A DNA stretch of 34,521 nt, from positions 1 to 34,521 of IMG/VR virus record IMGVR_UViG_3300017747_003863. The stretch is one strand, 5' to 3'. This document shows positions 10,165 through 33,522 of the stretch, piece by piece. Both the position numbers and the translations under genes were made by a program. Source of the DNA: a virus (Duplodnaviria; Caudoviricetes). The notes beneath the pieces are model-generated. The model was not told where the DNA came from and did no database searches. It saw nothing but the letters and a program-made list of their open reading frames with translations. Positions within the stretch are counted from its first letter, which is position 1, and every line of letters begins with the position of its first letter.

Positions 10165-11934
10165 TTAACCATCACAGCTCACGCAGTCGACCATAGCACG
10201 TGCGGCAATGTCGCCACGCAGAACAGACTCTGTCCGCATATAGTACAGCGTCTTGATTCCACCTCTCCACGCCTCCATATGGACCTGGTTGATCCACTTG
10301 GGAGTTGCTTCGGATGGGAAGGCAAGGTTAAGTGATTGTGATTGACTGATGTAGCGTTGCCGTACAGCAGCAAGGCGTACCAATTCCAACTGATTGATTT
10401 CCTTAAACGTCTTGAACACATCCTTGACCTTGTCGGCAGTTTCAAACTGACCGATGTCACTTATATGTGTCAACTTACCACTAACGAAGGCCCAGTTATC
10501 AAGTTCAGCAATGCCCTGGACTGATCCACCATCTGCAAGGATTTGGTCCCATCCCTCTTTGCCGAGTCCAATCTTCTTGAACACACGCTCCAACTCTGGG
10601 TTCTTACGGATGAACGTACCCTTTGCAGACTGTTCCGTGAATACGTTAGCAGCCCAAGGCTCAATGCCAGCAGAGACATTACCCGACAGCTTAGAGTTAG
10701 ACACTGTAGGAGCAATTGCAGTTAGGTGCGTGTTACGCATACCGAAACCTCGGCACCACAGAGGCTCTCCGTAGGTACGTGCCATATCACGACTTGCCCG
10801 TTGTGTCTCCATATAGATGTGCGAGAACACACGTCTTGTCTCAAACTCAGCAGCCATACCCTCGAATGGAAGGCCACGCTGTTGCAGGTAGGTGTGCCAC
10901 CCAAGGACACCGAGTCCCAGGGCACGTCCACGCTCCGCAGAACGCACTGAATTCTCAAAGCCACGCATACCCTTAGCCTTCTGGATAAACTCCTCCATAA
11001 CGCCATCTAAGAACATCGTAGACAGGTATACAGCATCAGTGTTGCACCACTCGTCATACTTAGCCAGGTTCATAGAAGACAGACAGCATACGAAGCTGTG
11101 CGCCTCATCCGTGTACAGAGTAATCTCAGAACAGATGTTGGTCATAAAGACCTTCAGTCCATTCTTCTTGTACATCTCAGGGTTCTGCTTGTTCACGTTG
11201 CCACGGTACATAATGTACGGCTCCCCTGTAGACTTACGCTTCTGTAAGACCTTGGACCAACGCTTACGTGCATCTTCGTCACCCTCTTCCAACTTTCGCA
11301 TAAACTTGTCACCAACAACTACGCACTGGTGCAGGTTCAGCGACTGGCGGTTAACGTCACCCTTAGGCTCACGGATTTCCAACCAGTCGTAGAAGTCATC
11401 GTGCTCAATGTTCAGGTTGATAGATGCAGCACCTCTACGTACGTTGCCCTGGGATGTGGCAAGGATGGAGCTGTCGTAAATCTTACAGAAAGGAACCACT
11501 CCATCTGTAGTTCCTTCACCATTTGCAATTGGCGATCCAGCAGGACGAACCATATTCATCCCGATGCCTACTCCACCTCCGTGCTTAGCCAACAGCATCA
11601 TCTCAAGGTTCTTGGAACCAATCTCCTGAATGCTGTCCCCTACGTCAATGCCGAAGCAAGAGATAGGTAGTCCACGATCCGTACCCATATTAGCAAGTAC
11701 AGGCGTAGCCAAGCCAAGCCAGTTGTTCCAGATGATGTTAAAGAACTTCTGCTCCAAGTCAGGACGCTTCAAACGTCCTGCTGCTGCACGTGCTACCCGT
11801 AGGTATGCGTCTTTAGGGCTCTCGTTACCGATTAGGTAACCTTTACTGATGGTCTTGATATAGACCTCAGCGTTCCCCCACTCGGGGAAGTCTACTCCGA
11901 CCTCCCATCCAAATTGTTCTCCGTAGTTTTTCAT
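10165..11934 (-). CDS. nrdA: Class Ia ribonucleotide reductase, alpha subunit
   Basis: ATPVLAN, PISCF, GGGVG, TNICSEI, CCLSS, APTVSNS, QSQSLN, KTLYY and C-terminal CxxC; short form with no obvious ATP cone. Confidence 0.97.
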   Translation of the reverse strand: MKNYGEQFGWEVGVDFPEWGNAEVYIKTISKGYLIGNESPKDAYLRVARAAAGRLKRPDLEQKFFNIIWNNWLGLATPVLANMGTDRGLPISCFGIDVGDSIQEIGSKNLEMMLLAKHGGGVGIGMNMVRPAGSPIANGEGTTDGVVPFCKIYDSSILATSQGNVRRGAASINLNIEHDDFYDWLEIREPKGDVNRQSLNLHQCVVVGDKFMRKLEEGDEDARKRWSKVLQKRKSTGEPYIMYRGNVNKQNPEMYKKNGLKVFMTNICSEITLYTDEAHSFVCCLSSMNLAKYDEWCNTDAVYLSTMFLDGVMEEFIQKAKGMRGFENSVRSAERGRALGLGVLGWHTYLQQRGLPFEGMAAEFETRRVFSHIYMETQRASRDMARTYGEPLWCRGFGMRNTHLTAIAPTVSNSKLSGNVSAGIEPWAANVFTEQSAKGTFIRKNPELERVFKKIGLGKEGWDQILADGGSVQGIAELDNWAFVSGKLTHISDIGQFETADKVKDVFKTFKEINQLELVRLAAVRQRYISQSQSLNLAFPSEATPKWINQVHMEAWRGGIKTLYYMRTESVLRGDIAARAMVDCVSCDG

Positions 11935-12641
11935 TAGTTATTATTAAAAAAGTTCCAATTGTCAAAGTTTTTACTCCTGCATCTTTTTGATACGGCTGTT
12001 CCAGATATATTGTATTTTAATGCACACTCTCGTATTGTGTCAAAAACAGTCTCATCTACAATAATTTTTACCGCAACTGGATTTTTGCCTCCAATTCGTG
12101 ATAAACTTATTTTTCTTCTTGACTCATCGCTACATACCCTACCCTTCTTTGCTGCTGATATTTTTCGTCTATAATCTATTGAGTTAAATACTGACGATGG
12201 GTCCTTCCATAGATTAGATACTTTTTTACCTATAGCAGCTCTATCTCCAAGAATCCTTCCCTTGTTTTTGTCTGATATCTTTTTTCTTGTCTCACTGGAA
12301 ACAACCCTTCCCTTCCTTGAGTCACTTAACTTCTTCTTGTACTCAGTCAATTGATCCTCTGTGTAGAACTTAGTAACCCATCCGCCAGTCCCCCCTTCGG
12401 ATATGTTATAACAGTCTCTGGTTTTCTTGTATTCATTTATCCAATAAATTTCTCTTTCATTTAAATGAGACTCACTGCCGCAAACCTCTATCAACTTTAC
12501 TGAGAAGTTTTCTCTACCATACTTTTTTATAGCACGAATCAATATTTTACCAGATCCAAGATAGCGGGGATTGAACTCCTTAGAACTCTTCCCCACATAT
12601 CTGAATCCATTGATCAAATTTGTTGTTTCGTATATATACAT
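11934..12641 (-). CDS. Free-standing GIY-YIG homing endonuclease with NUMOD3-like repeats
   Basis: YIY...YVG...YLGSG...EIYWI...YN motif set; repeated basic SxETRKKIS-type segments; AT-richer than flanks. ATG at 12641 preferred over TTG at 12647. Confidence 0.9.
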   Translation of the reverse strand: MYIYETTNLINGFRYVGKSSKEFNPRYLGSGKILIRAIKKYGRENFSVKLIEVCGSESHLNEREIYWINEYKKTRDCYNISEGGTGGWVTKFYTEDQLTEYKKKLSDSRKGRVVSSETRKKISDKNKGRILGDRAAIGKKVSNLWKDPSSVFNSIDYRRKISAAKKGRVCSDESRRKISLSRIGGKNPVAVKIIVDETVFDTIRECALKYNISGTAVSKRCRSKNFDNWNFFNNN

Positions 12642-12643
12642 AT

Positions 12644-13636
12644 TCAAAACATATCACTCCAATCTTCTCCCTCGTTAGCCTTGGAATAGTCAGTTGGCCT
12701 TAATGCGAAAAAATCAGTCCAGGTAACGCCCGATGTTAGGTGGTCGAACCACTCCATATCTTGAACAGAACCATAGTTTACCGTGAATATTTCATCGTAT
12801 CCCATCTCTCGCAGTTTGATATTTGCACGATGGCTAATGAAGTGCTTCATATCGTAGGCTCTCAGGTTCTCCAGGTCTCCTTGTTCAAAGATTTTGTCAA
12901 TGAACTTGTGCTCCATCTCAACCGTGATTTCTGCCGCCTCGTAAATATCTTCAGCTACGTCCTCACGAAGCCCTGGATACTCATCGCACATATGGTTAAA
13001 AAGGTGTACTCCCATACGGCTATGCAGAGACTCGTCACGGACTGACCACTTCATCTGCTGCCCAATACCCTTCAACAGATTACGCATCTGAAAGGAGTAC
13101 AGTACAGCAAAAGACGAATAGAGGGCTACGCCTTCTGCAAATGCTGAGAAGATGGCAATAGACCGAGCGATGTCAGTACGTGCAGCAGAGTCCACGAGAA
13201 GCTGTTCTGGAGTGTAGTCGTGAGATACTTCCACGAGTCTGTCAAAGCGAGAGCGCATAACATCATCGTGCAGGAACGCATTGTAGTCATCCAAGCCAAG
13301 CGTGTCGTTTAGATAGCTGTAGGCTGCTGCGTGGATGGTCTCCTGTGATCCGAACATCATCGCCATCTGACGAATCTCGTGCTTCGGGAACCACTTAGTA
13401 ACCATACCTGTCCAGTAGTCACCAACTGCACATTCTGTCTGAGCAAAGCCAAGGAGAATGTTTCCTACAAGATGTCTCTCAGCGTCTGACAGATTCTCCC
13501 TAAAATCCTTCAGGTCGTTCTGCATTGGAATTTCAGTATACAGCCAAAACGCCTGCGCCTGCTTCAGCCATCCTTCAGTGAAGTACGTGTCGTACTCGAA
13601 CGGTTTGTAGGCCACCCGTTCTGTAAATAATCCCAT
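12644..13636 (-). CDS. nrdB: Class Ia ribonucleotide reductase, beta subunit
   Basis: KPFEY, FW, ETIHAAAY, EG..YSSF, RDESLH di-iron motifs, DFF...TDY C-terminus. Confidence 0.97.
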   Translation of the reverse strand: MGLFTERVAYKPFEYDTYFTEGWLKQAQAFWLYTEIPMQNDLKDFRENLSDAERHLVGNILLGFAQTECAVGDYWTGMVTKWFPKHEIRQMAMMFGSQETIHAAAYSYLNDTLGLDDYNAFLHDDVMRSRFDRLVEVSHDYTPEQLLVDSAARTDIARSIAIFSAFAEGVALYSSFAVLYSFQMRNLLKGIGQQMKWSVRDESLHSRMGVHLFNHMCDEYPGLREDVAEDIYEAAEITVEMEHKFIDKIFEQGDLENLRAYDMKHFISHRANIKLREMGYDEIFTVNYGSVQDMEWFDHLTSGVTWTDFFALRPTDYSKANEGEDWSDMF

Positions 13637-14622: not shown

Positions 14623-14644
14623 ATTGATTTAGTTTAGCAGAAAG

Positions 14645-14718
14645 TACCCCTGGTTGGGCTCGAACCAACAACCTACGAATTAGAAGTTCGTCTATCTATC
14701 CAATTGATATACAGGGGC
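14645..14718 (-). tRNA. tRNA-Arg (anticodon UCU)
   Basis: Cloverleaf GCCCCTG/CAGGGGT, D stem TATC/GATA with A20, ACGAA-CTTCTAA-TTCGT, GTTGG-TTCGAGC-CCAAC; CCA not encoded. Confidence 0.95.
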
Positions 14719-19594: not shown

Positions 19595-20257
19595 TTACAG
19601 CTTGAATGCTTTAATCGTTAATTCAAATGGGTTTCCTTCGATGTCTTTTACTTGCTGCAACATCTGCTGTGCCAATTCACGTACCTCCACCTGTGCGTGT
19701 TCGCTGTTACGTAAATGCAGAAAATGCATAAATGAACGCCAGTTGAAACTGATGTCCATAGTAATCTGTGAGTTCATCGTCTTGAAGAATCGTGCTGACT
19801 CCTTGGCCCGCTTACGTCCCAGCAATGGTGTCAAATCAGCAAGGCACTCGTGGTATAATCTGTTGGCCTCCATCGTGAACAGGAACAGCTTATGCTCCCA
19901 GATTGTCTTATCTGATTCATAAATCTCAGGCAGTGTAGTTACCTGCGTATCCCAGTCGGCAGGAATGTAGAACTTATCCTCCTTCAATTCCTTGTAACGT
20001 GCAGACTCACCATTGATGCTTACACCTACACGGTGCTTCAGCAGGTGGATGTGGGTGGCTTGATCCACCGTAACCAAGAAGTGAAGTGTAGACTTCTCGA
20101 ATGGTGTGTGGTGTCCCTCACTTGCCAGCATCTCTAATAGTGAACTGATGCGTGACTGCTTCTCTTCGGTGATGTCTCTGCTGGTAGATGTCCAAGCGGA
20201 CAGGGCGTGAGTAGTGTCATCTCCGTAGTGTCCTATCAATTCAACTCTGTTGTTCAT
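19595..20257 (-). CDS. thyX: Flavin-dependent thymidylate synthase
   Basis: GHHTPFE, KHRVGVSINGESARY, KESARF, NWRSFMHFLHLRNSEHAQVEVR. Confidence 0.93.
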   Translation of the reverse strand: MNNRVELIGHYGDDTTHALSAWTSTSRDITEEKQSRISSLLEMLASEGHHTPFEKSTLHFLVTVDQATHIHLLKHRVGVSINGESARYKELKEDKFYIPADWDTQVTTLPEIYESDKTIWEHKLFLFTMEANRLYHECLADLTPLLGRKRAKESARFFKTMNSQITMDISFNWRSFMHFLHLRNSEHAQVEVRELAQQMLQQVKDIEGNPFELTIKAFKL

Positions 20258-20352
20258 TTCTCTTTGGTGTTAAATTTTTTGTTGTAGTAATTTAGAGAAG
20301 GCGAGTAGACCCAGTCATATGGGTCTGGGATAGCGCAAAGAATGGCGCTCAT
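20254..20352 (-). CDS. Putative 32-aa bridging peptide ending FNTKEK (not in ORF track)
   Basis: MSAILCAIPDPYDWVYSPSLNYYNKKFNTKEK; TAATG overlap with the upstream gene and ATGA overlap with thyX. Confidence 0.45.
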   Translation of the reverse strand: MSAILCAIPDPYDWVYSPSLNYYNKKFNTKEK

Positions 20353-21230
20353 TATTTCCCTCGCTCTTTTGGATAATGGTAAATTTTATTTCTTTCTTCG
20401 TACAACTTACGAAGTTGTTTTGTTTCTTTTTTGTCTTTACCAAGAATATAAGCATATTTGTGCTTTGATGGCATTGATATTTTTTCGGATACCGTTTGTT
20501 TGTATTTTGAATAATCCCTTAATTGTTTTTCAATTTCTGGTGGCATTTTATCCCAATTCATTCCAGTATTATGCGCCCATTCTTTTTGCCACTCAATACC
20601 TAATTCTTTGGCAAATTTTCTGTATGCGGTTTTTTGTCTGAAATACCTATCACTTACAACTTTCCTTGTATATGGGTTTATGTATCTTGTGGTAGTGCCT
20701 GCAGTTTGCCCCATATAGTAGAAATTACAAGCTTGATAAATAGTTCCAAGTTCCTTTGCGATTGGGTCTGAATATGCCGTAAATAATCTCCATTGAGTAT
20801 TATCAACCATCCATTTTATGCACCACATTAAAAATGAACTTGCTAAATTTTTAGGACTCCAAGAAATACAAGCACCTCTGCTTATTAGTCGTTCTAATTC
20901 TTTTGTGTTCTCTCCAAGTGTTTTTGAAAAGGCGTTTGGCATATTAAATAAAATCACCCCTGCAATGATTTCTTTATGGTAGCAAACAAACCAATGTGTT
21001 GTGTATTGAGATAAATTACCCAGCCATTCGTGTCTTTCAATAAATTGTTTTAACTTCTGTTGTTCTTTTTTATCAGTAACATTAACAAACGAAAAATCAG
21101 AAACCCTCAATGCTTCTACATATTCTTTTGTAAAGCCACATTCTTTTAGATCTTCTTCAAGATTTTTTACCCTAATGTCATACTGCCAACATTGGTCTTT
21201 ATCGTATGTGTTTAATCTTTCTTGTATCAT
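20352..21230 (-). CDS. Mom-like GNAT-fold DNA-modifying acetyltransferase
   Basis: FIERHEWLG, GVILF, ISRGAC...PKNLAS, AYSDP...GTIYQACNFYYMG, KHKY; AT-richer than flanks. Confidence 0.75.
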   Translation of the reverse strand: MIQERLNTYDKDQCWQYDIRVKNLEEDLKECGFTKEYVEALRVSDFSFVNVTDKKEQQKLKQFIERHEWLGNLSQYTTHWFVCYHKEIIAGVILFNMPNAFSKTLGENTKELERLISRGACISWSPKNLASSFLMWCIKWMVDNTQWRLFTAYSDPIAKELGTIYQACNFYYMGQTAGTTTRYINPYTRKVVSDRYFRQKTAYRKFAKELGIEWQKEWAHNTGMNWDKMPPEIEKQLRDYSKYKQTVSEKISMPSKHKYAYILGKDKKETKQLRKLYEERNKIYHYPKERGK

Positions 21231-22811: not shown

Positions 22812-22897
22812 CAGCCAGAACGGGATTCGGACCCGTGTCGTCCCTCCAGTCGTGTAGACCTGATAATGAGGGGTGTTGCCCATTACACCACCTGGCT
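22812..22897 (-). ncRNA. tRNA-like RNA with expanded (21-nt) anticodon loop
   Basis: AGCCAGG/TCTGGCT acceptor, GTGT/ACAC D stem, CCCTC/GAGGG stem, ACGGG-TCCGAAT-CCCGT T arm; intergenic. Confidence 0.8.
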
Positions 22898-25045: not shown

Positions 25046-25074
25046 GCTGCGGGGCTTTGGTGAAGCCCTCCGCT
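25046..25074 (-). repeat. 29-nt GC-rich hairpin element, copy 1
   Basis: 26/29 identical to 33154-33182; intergenic. Confidence 0.8.
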
Positions 25075-25880: not shown

Positions 25881-26108
25881 TTACAGGTCATATAAGAATA
25901 TATTTGCGTGGAAATCTTCGCCTGATTCACAGGGCTGTGGGTCGCCTTTCCTGCGTGGGCATACCTGCTCTTTGCCGTAGTCCCATACGTCCTCAATCAA
26001 CTGACGTTGCATACGTCTGAGTTGCTTTGCTTCGTGAATGATTTCCTCACGTGTGATGTGCGGGTGTTGGTTGATGATTCTGATCAACTTTTCAATCGGT
26101 GTGTCCAT
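25881..26108 (-). CDS. Hypothetical protein, 75 aa
   Basis: TAATG coupling; similar to 21448-21696. Confidence 0.7.
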   Translation of the reverse strand: MDTPIEKLIRIINQHPHITREEIIHEAKQLRRMQRQLIEDVWDYGKEQVCPRRKGDPQPCESGEDFHANIFLYDL

Positions 26109-26647
26109 TAGAATTTGTCTTTTAGGTTTTGTTTTTCAATGATGTTTTTCAGGGCTTCCTCGTAGTGCGTTGCCTCTGCGTACTTGGACAGCAGGTTGTA
26201 GAACTGCTCCTCGGTCTTGCACTGGTTGGCGTACGTTGCACACCACAGGGCATAGTCAATGACGCTATCCTCCCAAGTGGCGTAGGCTGCGTGGTTCCGA
26301 TTGGTTCCTGTCGCTGTGTTAATCCTGACCCGTGCCTGCTTCATCCCGAACAGATTATTGTTCTCAAGGAATATGCCTGAACGGAAGTCATTGGACTCAA
26401 TTTTTGCCTGCGCTAAGGCTATGTGCGGGAAGCGGATGTTCAACTCCTTCAACTTGTCAATCAAGCGGTCTTCCGTGAAGTTATTGTTTGTCACGTCCAC
26501 GTTCATAACGCTTTCGTAGACCTTGACTGACGTGTGTGCAGTTAGCGCAATTCCAACCGAAGAAAGAGTGATGATTGTGAACAGCAGGTTCTTTTTCGCC
26601 ATACTGACACGCTCAAAGGTCAGGGTTTCTTTGTTGTACCTGTACAT
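26108..26647 (-). CDS. Glucosaminidase (GH73-like) peptidoglycan hydrolase with N-terminal TM segment
   Basis: ALAQAKIES, NNLFGMK, AAYATWEDSVIDY, YAEATHY; hydrophobic residues ~21-37. Confidence 0.82.
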   Translation of the reverse strand: MYRYNKETLTFERVSMAKKNLLFTIITLSSVGIALTAHTSVKVYESVMNVDVTNNNFTEDRLIDKLKELNIRFPHIALAQAKIESNDFRSGIFLENNNLFGMKQARVRINTATGTNRNHAAYATWEDSVIDYALWCATYANQCKTEEQFYNLLSKYAEATHYEEALKNIIEKQNLKDKF

Positions 26648-29493: not shown

Positions 29494-29527
29494 AACTTGT
29501 GTTTGTTTGATATGTCAAATGTCGTAA

Positions 29528-29725
29528 CTATTTCTGACCTGTGCAAGTATTTTGCAAACTTTTTTTGGAATTAATTTCATCTACTTGAATGTGAACAAGT
29601 TGCAGTAAGATAAGTAGTGCGATTCCTGCGATACCTACGAAGAAATTGGATGCCTGCACGGCTGCTGCTGTTCCCCAAAGGACGCCAAGTTGTAGGAGGA
29701 TGATTGTGATTGCTGACTTTTTCAT
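29528..29725 (-). CDS. Small membrane protein, 65 aa
   Basis: Two hydrophobic helices; ATGA coupling. Confidence 0.65.
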   Translation of the reverse strand: MKKSAITIILLQLGVLWGTAAAVQASNFFVGIAGIALLILLQLVHIQVDEINSKKSLQNTCTGQK

Positions 29726-31180: not shown

Positions 31181-31450
31181 TTAGAATCCGAATGAATTGA
31201 TTACCTGACCTTCGCTGTTGAAGGATTTCTGCATATCTACCTGCATCAGGCTGTCTGCATCTGCCTGAGTCAGGGACTTGATGTATGTCTTACCTGAAGG
31301 CATCAGGTAGGCCACAATGTATGGGTGCTTTGCAGTCACGCCCATAACGACAGCACCTGTGCGCTGTGCTTGGTTTATGAATAATTTGCAAGGCTTTGCG
31401 TCACCTGCGAAGTGGAACGTGTTCTCAAGGGTTTCAATTAGGTTTTTCAT
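31181..31450 (-). CDS. Hypothetical early protein, 89 aa
   Basis: ATG 28 nt downstream of a hammerhead cleavage site. Confidence 0.75.
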   Translation of the reverse strand: MKNLIETLENTFHFAGDAKPCKLFINQAQRTGAVVMGVTAKHPYIVAYLMPSGKTYIKSLTQADADSLMQVDMQKSFNSEGQVINSFGF

Positions 31451-31472
31451 AACAGGTAGTTTTAAGTGTTTT

Positions 31473-31522
31473 GGTTAAGACCCCCGAAGGGGTTTCGGCT
31501 ACTTAAGCCTCATCGGTTAACC
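31473..31522 (-). ncRNA. Type I hammerhead ribozyme (downstream copy)
   Basis: GGUUAA CCGAUGA GGCU-UAAGU-AGCC GAAA CCCC-UUCG-GGGG UC/ UUAACC; U4C core variant; predicted cleavage between 31479 and 31478. Confidence 0.9.
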
Positions 31523-31525
31523 TGT

Positions 31526-31768
31526 TTACATCGGGTATCCTAATTTCCCCCATAGTTCGTCTGCGTAGCGAACTCCACGTTGAATTGCTTTGCGTGCCGT
31601 TTCGGGGAAGTTGTAACTCACTTGGAACTCAAAGCCTTGGCCGTGGTTAACCTGTAGTTCCCACTCGTGGTACTTGCCGTTGGACGCAAGTACACCCATA
31701 GGATGGCGCACAATTTGGTAGGCGAACGATGGAGTTTGGGCCTGTAGAACGATAGTTGAATTTTTCAT
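31526..31768 (-). CDS. Hypothetical early protein, 80 aa
   Basis: ATG ORF between the two hammerheads. Confidence 0.75.
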   Translation of the reverse strand: MKNSTIVLQAQTPSFAYQIVRHPMGVLASNGKYHEWELQVNHGQGFEFQVSYNFPETARKAIQRGVRYADELWGKLGYPM

Positions 31769-31801
31769 AAGGTGATTGATTAAAGTTTTAGTTTAAGTGG
31801 A

Positions 31802-32125
31802 TTACTTGTGGTTTCTGTAAGCCTTAAGTATGGTGTTGATGGCGTGGTTGAAAGCCTTTGCTCCTGTTGCGCTGAAGAAGTCATTGTCGTTCAGATTGAA
31901 CCGCTCCTTGGTTATGTATTGGTAGGTGCAGAAGGACGTCTTAGCCTTCTCCTCACCGATGATGGTAACGAACTGACCTGTTTTGCTGACAACGATTTCG
32001 CTGATACTCACAATTGAAGGGAAGGTGCCTCCATCGTAGGTGGTGACGAACTCGTCCTGCATCTGCTTAGCGTAGGCAAGTACTTCGGCAATCTTAAAGG
32101 ACTGAAGTTTGGTGATGGTCTTCAT
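31802..32125 (-). CDS. Hypothetical early protein, 107 aa
   Basis: ATG 29 nt downstream of a hammerhead cleavage site. Confidence 0.75.
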   Translation of the reverse strand: MKTITKLQSFKIAEVLAYAKQMQDEFVTTYDGGTFPSIVSISEIVVSKTGQFVTIIGEEKAKTSFCTYQYITKERFNLNDNDFFSATGAKAFNHAINTILKAYRNHK

Positions 32126-32148
32126 AACGTGTAGTTTTAGGGTTTCTT

Positions 32149-32200
32149 GGTTAAGACAGCCTTTCGGCTGTTTCGTCCACTTAGGACTCGTCAGTTAACC
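32149..32200 (-). ncRNA. Type I hammerhead ribozyme (upstream copy)
   Basis: GGUUAA CUGACGA GUCC-UAAGU-GGAC GAAA CAGCC-GAAA-GGCUG UC/ UUAACC; canonical core; predicted cleavage between 32155 and 32154. Confidence 0.95.
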
Positions 32201-32440
32201 TTGGTACGTTTGCAGGTCACGCTTTAGGAACTTGACTGCATCGGCCTTAGTCCACCAATTTCCTGGCCACCATTCCTCGGGCCCATCGTTGGTCGTTTCA
32301 TAGATGTACCAATACTTGCCGAAGTACTCGTTGGTATCAAAGTTGTAGTCCTTGCGGATTTCAAAGAAGCGGATGGTTCCGTTGTGGACTGCGGAGACGA
32401 TGTAACGTCCTGCCTCGCCTCGGGTGATAACTACTTTCAT
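32195..32440 (-). CDS. First early gene, hypothetical 81 aa
   Basis: ATG 32440 (MKVVITRGEAG) lies downstream of the promoter and shares the CACGTTATG start context with 32125; stop codon lies in hammerhead stem I. Confidence 0.75.
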   Translation of the reverse strand: MKVVITRGEAGRYIVSAVHNGTIRFFEIRKDYNFDTNEYFGKYWYIYETTNDGPEEWWPGNWWTKADAVKFLKRDLQTYQG

Positions 32441-32479
32441 AACGTGGTTGTTTGGATTAGTTGTTATTGTTTGACATTG

Positions 32480-32509
32480 CAAACATACGGCATCAATTCG
32501 GATATGCAA
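32480..32509 (-). promoter_or_regulatory. Early promoter, Flavobacterium-type consensus
   Basis: Exact TTG-N19-TATGTTTG (-33 at 32509-32507, -7 at 32487-32480). Confidence 0.75.
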
Positions 32510-32589
32510 GAATTATTTTTACGGAAAATCGCAACTCGCTCGGAAACCCCAATGAAATCAAGGGTTTACGAATGAAAAAAAGTTTATCA

Positions 32590-32875
32590 GGTACAGCAGC
32601 AGGGAGCAGCAGCAGGCATATAGCAGCAGTAATACAGGTACAACAAAGTACTTTGCTTAGCAAGGTAGGTAAGTAATGTAGGTAGGTAGGCGGGGGGATT
32701 GTCCCCTTCCTTTTGGACCTCTCTCCAAACGTACATACCACCCTACTTAGATGCCTCCCATAGGCTGTCAGAAAACGCCAAATTCCTGTACGGATTTACC
32801 TGCGCTTTGGGGGGGTTGGGTTTGGGAATCCGTTTCGGGTGTCGGGACGCAGTAAGGAATATATATATATTATCC
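32590..32875. other. Non-coding low-complexity region at the transcriptional divergence (candidate terminus/origin)
   Basis: AGC runs 32594-32629, GTAG runs 32664-32690, G tracts 32809-32846, AT dinucleotide run ~32859-32871. Confidence 0.5.
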
Positions 32876-33153
32876 CCTGGGTATTTATTTCTATATACCT
32901 TCTCTCATAAAAGAACGCAGTTCGTGTCGCAGACTCTGTTCCACAAAATGTACCTTAAGGAATCTGTCAGATTTTGGGAAGCAGGTCGGTATAATGCCGA
33001 ATTGGGACTGATAATCTGTCAGTTACGCTCAATCACTTGAACAGACTCTTTAAACGTACGTACTTGTAGCTGACGTATTCTGTCGGGTCAAGACACAGCA
33101 TCCCCAAGACCTCCTTTGCGTGTGAGCAGTTAATCGCCTGTTGTTGTCGTTAC

Positions 33154-33182
33154 GCTGCGGGGCTTTTGGGGAGCCCTCCGCT
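33154..33182 (-). repeat. 29-nt GC-rich hairpin element, copy 2
   Basis: 26/29 identical to 25046-25074. Confidence 0.8.
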
Positions 33183-33247
33183 ACACTAAAGCGTTAGAAT
33201 GAGAAGCGTGTTTACTATTTGCCTCCTTACGTGCTCACTTGTGTAAG

Positions 33248-33279
33248 CAAAGTTACAAGAAATAAATGACATTTCCAAA
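33248..33279 (-). promoter_or_regulatory. Leftward promoter
   Basis: TTTG-N20-TAACTTTG. Confidence 0.55.
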
Positions 33280-33337
33280 TGTTAACGTCTATAATGTAGG
33301 TATGTATTATAGATTTTATCTATGACTCTATATTCTG

Positions 33338-33345
33338 TATATTTG
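33338..33345 (+). promoter_or_regulatory. Rightward -7 element TATATTTG
   Basis: TAnnTTTG match 21 nt upstream of ATG 33367. Confidence 0.5.
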
Positions 33346-33366
33346 TCCAAACATAATCTGTTAACG

Positions 33367-33522
33367 ATGGAAATCAAGAAGAAGTATATGGGTGGCGGTA
33401 TGGCACCTAAGTACGGTAAGGGTGGTATGATGAAGTACCTCAAGGGTGGTCAGGTTAAACTTGATGTGAACAAGGATAACAAGATCACGAGTGTAGACTT
33501 CAAAATGATGAAGAAGAAATGA
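33367..33522 (+). CDS. Small basic protein with three YxxGG repeats and an EF-hand/dockerin-like loop, 51 aa
   Basis: YMGGG, YGKGG, YLKGG; DVNKDNKITSVD; ATG 33367 preferred. Confidence 0.75.
   Translation: MEIKKKYMGGGMAPKYGKGGMMKYLKGGQVKLDVNKDNKITSVDFKMMKKK

Follow-up and report, generated by a model that had tools for sequence, protein, structure and literature searches.

Tandem hammerhead ribozymes flank genes in phages and prophages, and processing of mRNA to gene or operon length has been proposed for them (Perreault et al. 2011, PMC3088659). According to the available text of that study, three tandem arrangements were cleaved, and tandem phage hammerheads were active both in vitro and in E. 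coli. In these clusters several hammerheads flank single genes or short blocks whose identity varies, and the examples tested came from Clostridium, Azorhizobium and Agrobacterium prophages. Clustered phage hammerheads have been reported since 2011 and the mechanism class is already known; what hammerheads do in bacteria and phages continues to be termed open in the accessible parts of later papers (PMC6765202; PMC6155905).

We analyzed a 34,521-nt stretch of DNA from a virus of the Caudoviricetes (IMG/VR record IMGVR_UViG_3300017747_003863), hereafter the window. A pattern scan of both strands gave two type I hammerhead matches, HH1 and HH2, both on the minus strand (32200-32149 and 31522-31473), with a layout like that of the clusters described above, at least two hammerheads flanking genes or short blocks on the phage coding strand. 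The scan recovered the same stems, loop II and GUC triplets as an initial annotation of this DNA, and C17 falls at 32155 and 31479, in agreement with the cut sites proposed there. The location after the first and third genes was also confirmed, the order being genes of 81, 107 and 80 aa and then HH2; what had been overlooked is that the UAA in the 5' strand of HH1 stem I doubles as the stop codon of gene 1. The features of this segment are the following.

32195-32440, minus strand: gene 1, 81 aa, no assigned function; its UAA stop (32197-32195) belongs to HH1 stem I
32149-32200, minus strand: HH1, type I hammerhead with canonical core CUGACGA; predicted cut 32155/32154
32126-32154, minus strand: predicted leader of gene 2 (29 nt, 5'-OH), rich in A and C, without Shine-Dalgarno sequence
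31802-32125, minus strand: gene 2, 107 aa, no assigned function; a 37% identical homolog in locus L017 likewise lies 3' of a hammerhead
31526-31768, minus strand: gene 3, 80 aa, no assigned function; stop 3 nt ahead of HH2 stem I
31473-31522, minus strand: HH2, type I hammerhead whose core, CCGAUGA, carries U4C; predicted cut 31479/31478
31451-31478, minus strand: predicted 28-nt 5'-OH leader of gene 4
31181-31450, minus strand: gene 4, 89 aa, no assigned function; first gene on the predicted downstream product

Genes 1-4 have no PHROG, Pfam or usable Atlas match, and the 11 homologs of gene 1 are all unnamed.

Stems I, II and III were scored at 6, 4 and 6 pairs in both copies, with stems II and III closed and stem I open, and none of 100 order-2 Markov shuffles of the window yielded an equally strict match. 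With respect to the type I core (C3-U4-G5-A6-N7-G8-A9, G12-A13-A14, A15.1-U16.1, H17), HH1 is canonical, and HH2 has CCGAUGA instead of CUGANGA, a known natural variant (U4C); the initial annotation had overlooked this substitution. The minimum-free-energy structure of each isolated 50-52 nt piece is a three-way junction, with a z-score of -3.8 for HH1 and only -1.2 for HH2. In secondary-structure models, from which tertiary terms are absent, the probability of stem I in HH1 and HH2 is a modest 0.29 co-transcriptionally and 0.02-0.05 with downstream sequence (family medians 0.25 and 0.14, respectively).

The Rfam search that the annotation had put forward as a check gave a mixed result. HH1 resembles Hammerhead_1 (RF00163, clan CL00010; 29.2 bits against a gathering score of 34, E 3.5e-4) and HH2 is unmatched, while RAGATH-1-hammerhead (RF03152, gathering 56.3 bits) gives 22.8 bits for HH1 and 22.3 bits for HH2 (HH2 E 2.6), so that neither copy reaches a gathering score. 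The two ribozymes share with Hammerhead_1 the type I topology and the core CUGANGA/GAAA/UH; they differ from it in a loop II of 5 nt, and neither a stem I bulge nor a pseudoknot was found in them. RAGATH-1 is defined by a minimal stem II with an upstream hairpin. A family covariance model run with filters off added no copy, intact or decayed, to the two in the window, where no type II or type III hammerhead was found either, and Rfam at loose E-values indicated no other ribozyme class between 21000 and 34521.

A strict pattern matches 23 IMG/VR stretches, a looser one retaining GGUUAA an estimated 410, and one fixing only the core and a UNANU loop an estimated 1,300. By these patterns HH1 and HH2 are members of a subfamily of about 1,300 stretches that is characterized by a 6-bp stem I flanked by A on both sides (A/A), a 4-bp stem II and the UNANU loop. 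In the sample gathered through core and loop, type I accounts for 137 of 142 unique matches and stem I measures 6 bp in 135 of 137 copies, with A on its 5' side in 135/136 and on its 3' side in 137/137. An invariant stem I sequence proved to be an artefact of the initial patterns, because without that constraint stem I covaries freely (GRUUAA in 22/137). The fixed positions of U-N-A-N-U are kept at 100, 94 and 91% among 163 copies collected without loop constraint. Pairing of loop II with the 3' tail, hinted at by UAAGU/ACUUA in HH2, was excluded, since it is found in 19 of these 163 copies against 24.7 in shuffles; a Watson-Crick pseudoknot is thus unsupported, and no stem I bulge was found. 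As a pseudoknot fails to explain the A/A flanks and the UNANU loop, these sequences suggest that a non-canonical contact between the two is likely.

Shine-Dalgarno leaders follow 60 of the 116 core-and-loop copies that have an ATG; about half of the unbiased copies therefore precede such leaders, and the family reaches beyond Bacteroidota phages. No Rfam gathering match was obtained among family loci (0 in 6 loci, 0 in 20 loci). In cultured phages, BLASTN of HH1 and HH2 gave partial, weak matches only (E 0.04 or worse), and the covariance model located no copy in the whole record of Maribacter phage Panino nor in 45.9 of the 60.9 kb of MW202828. No description of the subfamily was found in the literature on hammerheads in phages, in a coverage made up mainly of open-access papers. 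Copies were also seen in other settings. Eight family ribozymes occupy 4 kb of a MAG contig of phage-derived look, nearly one per gene (L187:534-4571). Three Mucilaginibacter isolates carry chromosomal copies (L184:2999-3049, L198:2999-3052 and L199:2999-3053) without a nearby ATG downstream, ahead of genes labelled by eye as transposase-like or conjugation-like, and their role is perhaps different. The chromosome of Paraflavitalea speifideaquila has two back-to-back ribozymes in a region resembling a prophage (L196:3001-3242, minus strand), which offers a cultured system.

The distribution of variants points to selection on core and structure for RNA catalysis. With the rest of the pattern held, and on a base of about 410 stretches (estimate) of the GGUUAA form, G12 is changed to A, C or U in no IMG/VR stretch and U4 to a purine in none, and U4C occurs in 30, with stems intact. 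In an alignment of 36 copies, whose rows were preselected as hammerheads, 540 of 540 cells pair and 8 of 15 pairs vary on both sides. Orientation is strict: strands are never mixed within a locus (57 multi-copy loci out of 160, loci overlapping), and in 5/5 near-complete relatives the matches to a general hammerhead pattern lie on a single strand, within at most 1.6 kb. Moreover, type III hammerheads fill neighbouring junctions, 11 on the same strand and none on the opposite one, and therefore the shared feature is the cut and not one topology. The selection on structure that had been read from covariation between the two copies in the window is thus upheld by many more, and hammerheads at early junctions do recur in related phages, these relatives having been collected via the ribozyme pattern. 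The type III hammerheads have their own recurring loop sequences and were observed at neighbouring early junctions of the same operons in L007, L010, L013, L014, L021, L022, L023 and others.

As regards HH2, the sequences make it likely that it is slower, because of U4C, yet still active. U4C considerably lowers activity in vitro, and a viroid U4C variant is still sufficiently active in vivo (PMC3088659, available text). We hold it unlikely that HH2 is a decaying copy inactivated by the substitution, with HH1 working alone: such decay would agree with the loss of activity in vitro, with the occurrence of the same stems with U4 in L016 and L006 and with the fact that, of 17 U4C examples found beyond the window, 12 come from a few near-identical groups (assessed by eye), but the intact stems of the 30 U4C stretches, the complete lack of U4A/G and G12 changes, and the viroid case speak against it.

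The ribozymes lie in what is probably an early operon. The minus strand carries in order a non-coding stretch, many small unknown genes, and then genes for Erf, an exonuclease, a primase and ribonucleotide reductase, and the operon is called early because this corresponds to the usual early-to-middle order. Three sites match the Bacteroidota promoter pattern in full, all on the minus strand between 33377 and 32480.

33348-33377, minus strand: promoter-like site 1, Bacteroidota-type (TTG-N-TANNTTTG; consensus from 10.1101/172254), the most upstream of the three
33248-33278, minus strand: promoter-like site 2, matching the refined TAHHTTTG (PMC6847099)
32480-32509, minus strand: promoter-like site 3, directly upstream of gene 1, the likely early promoter

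Their number is no more than expected by chance (shuffle mean 2.1); their clustering, unlike their count, does not look like chance. The region of site 3 is 88-92% conserved in L006, L016 and L020 and is also present in L003/L078. In the -7 box closest to gene 1 there is a G, which the refined F. johnsoniae consensus disfavours (PMC6847099, available text). Among related loci, a sense promoter-like site occurs at most 1.5 kb upstream of the first copy in 31/74, and an antisense one in 7. All three sites fall in an interval of some 900 nt (32440-33380) that separates divergent gene blocks, lacks any convincing gene and shares 74% identity with L078. Before gene 11 there may be a fourth promoter, whose -7 box is imperfect (29520-29550, minus strand); relatives have a full promoter match near the equivalent position, beyond which ribozymes are absent.

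The host of the phage is likely a member of the Bacteroidota: the primase/helicase of the window is closest to those of phages of Maribacter, Cellulophaga and Flavobacterium. Among genome records in which the motif occurs, those that are long contigs or isolates are Bacteroidota (Mucilaginibacter, Paraflavitalea, Agriterribacter), and short MAG contigs bear assorted labels. Several other elements were recorded in the window. A 29-nt repeat with a predicted minus-strand hairpin is present in two 90% identical copies, one in the non-coding stretch downstream of the promoter-like site at 33248 (33154-33182) and one in the spacer before the Erf-like gene (25046-25074), in regions that fold no better than shuffles. 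A tRNA-Arg(UCU) is located at 14644-14718 (minus strand), and a tRNA-like element at 22812-22897 (minus strand) reaches 35.8 bits with Rfam and is uncalled by ARAGORN. The early-to-middle block on the minus strand includes a Mom-family protein (20352-21230), ThyX (19595-20257) and a glucosaminidase-domain protein (26108-26647). A 237-aa ORF between two ribonucleotide reductase subunit genes (11934-12647, minus strand) presumably resembles GIY-YIG homing endonucleases.

The best explanation of these data, and in our judgement a probable one although drawn from sequence, is that HH1 and HH2 serve for self-processing and insulation of the early mRNAs. The transcript from the predicted early promoter would cut itself in the spacers after genes 1 and 3, giving a gene 1 message of about 320 nt, a gene 2-3 message of 676 nt and a message beginning at gene 4. 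Each upstream product would keep its stop codon, two hairpins and a 2',3'-cyclic phosphate at the 3' end, and each downstream product would have a 5'-OH and open with an A-rich, unstructured leader of Bacteroidota type, only 28-29 nt long; the shortness of the 6-bp, A/U-rich stem I would ease their separation. The likely gain would be that small, often-swapped early genes each receive a standard start region and their own lifetime, regardless of the gene upstream. Processing of an early polycistronic mRNA, as claimed in the initial annotation, remains the best reading, and the conserved Bacteroidota-type candidate promoter upstream agrees with it; as a proposal it is not new.

The fate of the products would depend on host nucleases. 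RNase E/G favours 5'-monophosphate ends. Among five Bacteroidota genomes with the motif, which are not known hosts, RNase E/G is present in 5/5 and RNase J, the enzyme that degrades the glmS cleavage product, is above the cut-off in 0/5; a 5'-OH would therefore be more likely to protect than to destabilise. A limit on insulation is set by the homologs of genes 6 and 7, which have a ribozyme in some relatives and not in the window, and between genes 1 and 10 hammerheads are found at 2 of 9 junctions only. As relatives were gathered through the ribozyme pattern, their counts do not measure prevalence in the phage group; a protein-led search for relatives via genes 2 and 7 returned none.

Stop and start codons are arranged closely around the copies. 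Of 188 unique GGUUAA-type copies, 130 overlap with the upstream stop codon and 37 follow it at a distance of 0-6 nt, 14 copies having no upstream ORF under the rule applied; overlap is found in 79/132 copies gathered without the stem I constraint. The next ATG is 18-29 nt past the cut in 158/188. In 162 copies the leaders have A at -12 (92%), -13 (76%) and -3 (75%) and almost no G, and A-3, A-12 and A-13 are the signature of well-translated F. johnsoniae genes (PMC6847099, available text); ribozyme-free junctions show a similar pattern, in a control set selected for A at -12. The predicted gain in accessibility exceeds 1 kcal/mol at 111/161 real cuts and at 92/150 imagined cuts at ribozyme-free junctions, so that the benefit is a generic one and a ribozyme is dispensable at most junctions; a cleavage-gated opening of the start region was discarded on this ground. 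Pairing between upstream sequence and leader, visible in folds of the window, was likewise rejected, being unconserved in the family (mean -3.5 against -3.7 kcal/mol shuffled) and disrupted in L003. For two 9-nt motifs, no antisense copy of the shared start motif lies on the transcribed strand.

With the stop codon in or beside stem I, a ribosome that terminates there would open up the ribozyme, and cleavage could occur only when the upstream gene is poorly translated, tuning or lowering downstream expression in the manner of glmS. The frequent overlap favours such regulated step-down, as do L016 and L020, in which unrelated first genes likewise terminate at the stem I UAA, but overlap is also expected from compact genomes and from a motif with built-in stops (at least 2 frames in 172/177 copies), and in many copies the stop is just outside the ribozyme. 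Decay does follow glmS cleavage (PMC6765202, available text); against it stand the low RNase J scores in the five genomes, the unconserved upstream pairing and a start region that is not extra occluded. We consider this regulation improbable. Doubtful too, if a little less so, is a broader form of the insulation hypothesis in which minimal type I hammerheads would be natural plug-and-play insulators that combine an A/A-to-UNANU tertiary module, their own stops, cut and leader, and a ribosome-gated cut; if it were true, unrelated genes slotted into the early operon would be expressed at once.

Comparison with relatives illustrates such exchanges. The close relative L003/L078 shares with the window the promoter region, gene 1 and the position of the first ribozyme, and its order is gene 1, hammerhead, gene X, gene 5, against gene 1, HH1, genes 2 and 3, HH2, genes 4 and 5 in the window. 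DNA similarity breaks off at 32121, the start codon that follows HH1, and is regained from 31184 on. Gene X is unrelated to the genes replaced and terminates within the first 8 nt of a ribozyme, the remainder of which is missing; L016 and L020 have the same promoter and different first genes, whose stop is again supplied by ribozyme stem I. These exchanges fit the insulation of swappable genes; recombination at the repeats may be a by-product.

The same cassette exchange, with similarity breaking at a start codon, and the near-identical copies ahead of different genes in L016, L006 and L018 could also indicate that the motifs are chiefly DNA repeats promoting gene swaps in the early region, or harmless passengers, their cutting being incidental. 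We give this little credence: U4C is tolerated and changes at G12 are not seen, orientation is strict, type III hammerheads are interchangeable with these copies, and copies within a locus rarely share stem II or stem III (7 and 6 of 141 pairs), which together indicates selection on RNA catalysis. Gene swapping at ribozyme repeats may be a side effect of self-processing.

Circularisation of the 676-nt piece, after the fashion of retrozymes, through reverse hammerhead ligation or the RtcB of the host is very improbable. In its favour, the identical stems I would allow the piece to rebuild a complete hammerhead from its two ends, a 5'-OH and a cyclic phosphate are suitable for ligation, animal tandem type I hammerheads produce circles (PMC7761336, available text) and B. 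thetaiotaomicron carries RtcB. Against it, neighbouring stems I differ in 9/15 multi-copy loci of an unbiased sample, many loci have a single copy, spliced or circular products were undetected by Perreault et al. (PMC3088659, available text), RtcB is absent in 5/5 near-complete relatives and closure would rebuild an active ribozyme.

Self-processing by HH1 and HH2 can thus be set beside the systems already described. What these sequences appear to add is a subfamily below the Rfam cut-off with A/A-flanked stem I and UNANU loop, the overlap with stop codons, and leaders of Bacteroidota type. It provides a clean test set, with many natural copies of one geometry, a tolerated slow variant (U4C), close phages distinguished by a single cassette, and copies on the chromosomes of cultured Bacteroidota (Paraflavitalea, Mucilaginibacter). 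RNase III, a host protein, leaves 5'-P and 3'-OH ends on T7 early RNA, whereas here an RNA-catalysed cut with 5'-OH and cyclic phosphate is predicted. The likeness with T7 consists in a long early phage transcript that is cut between genes (Dunn and Studier 1973, via PMC5371410). The available text of PMC3088659 holds no description that we found of the A/A-flanked 6-bp stem I with UNANU loop, the stop overlap or the Bacteroidota leaders, and members may be included in its alignment. Non-LTR retrozymes resemble the locus in that a unit is bracketed by two tandem type I hammerheads (PMC7761336); the bracketed unit here consists of protein-coding phage genes, stem III is strong and circles are unsupported. 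RiboJ, too, is a self-cleaving hammerhead that strips off the RNA upstream and gives a gene a uniform 5' end (PMC6206723), but it is engineered and leaves a 5' hairpin, while in the type I copies described here the hairpins are predicted to stay on the upstream product and the downstream leader to be unstructured. By analogy, the gain proposed for the phage would be the same that T7 achieves via RNase III and engineers via RiboJ, and a natural hammerhead of 50 nt with a fixed flank-and-loop signature may in turn serve as a compact part for RNA engineering.
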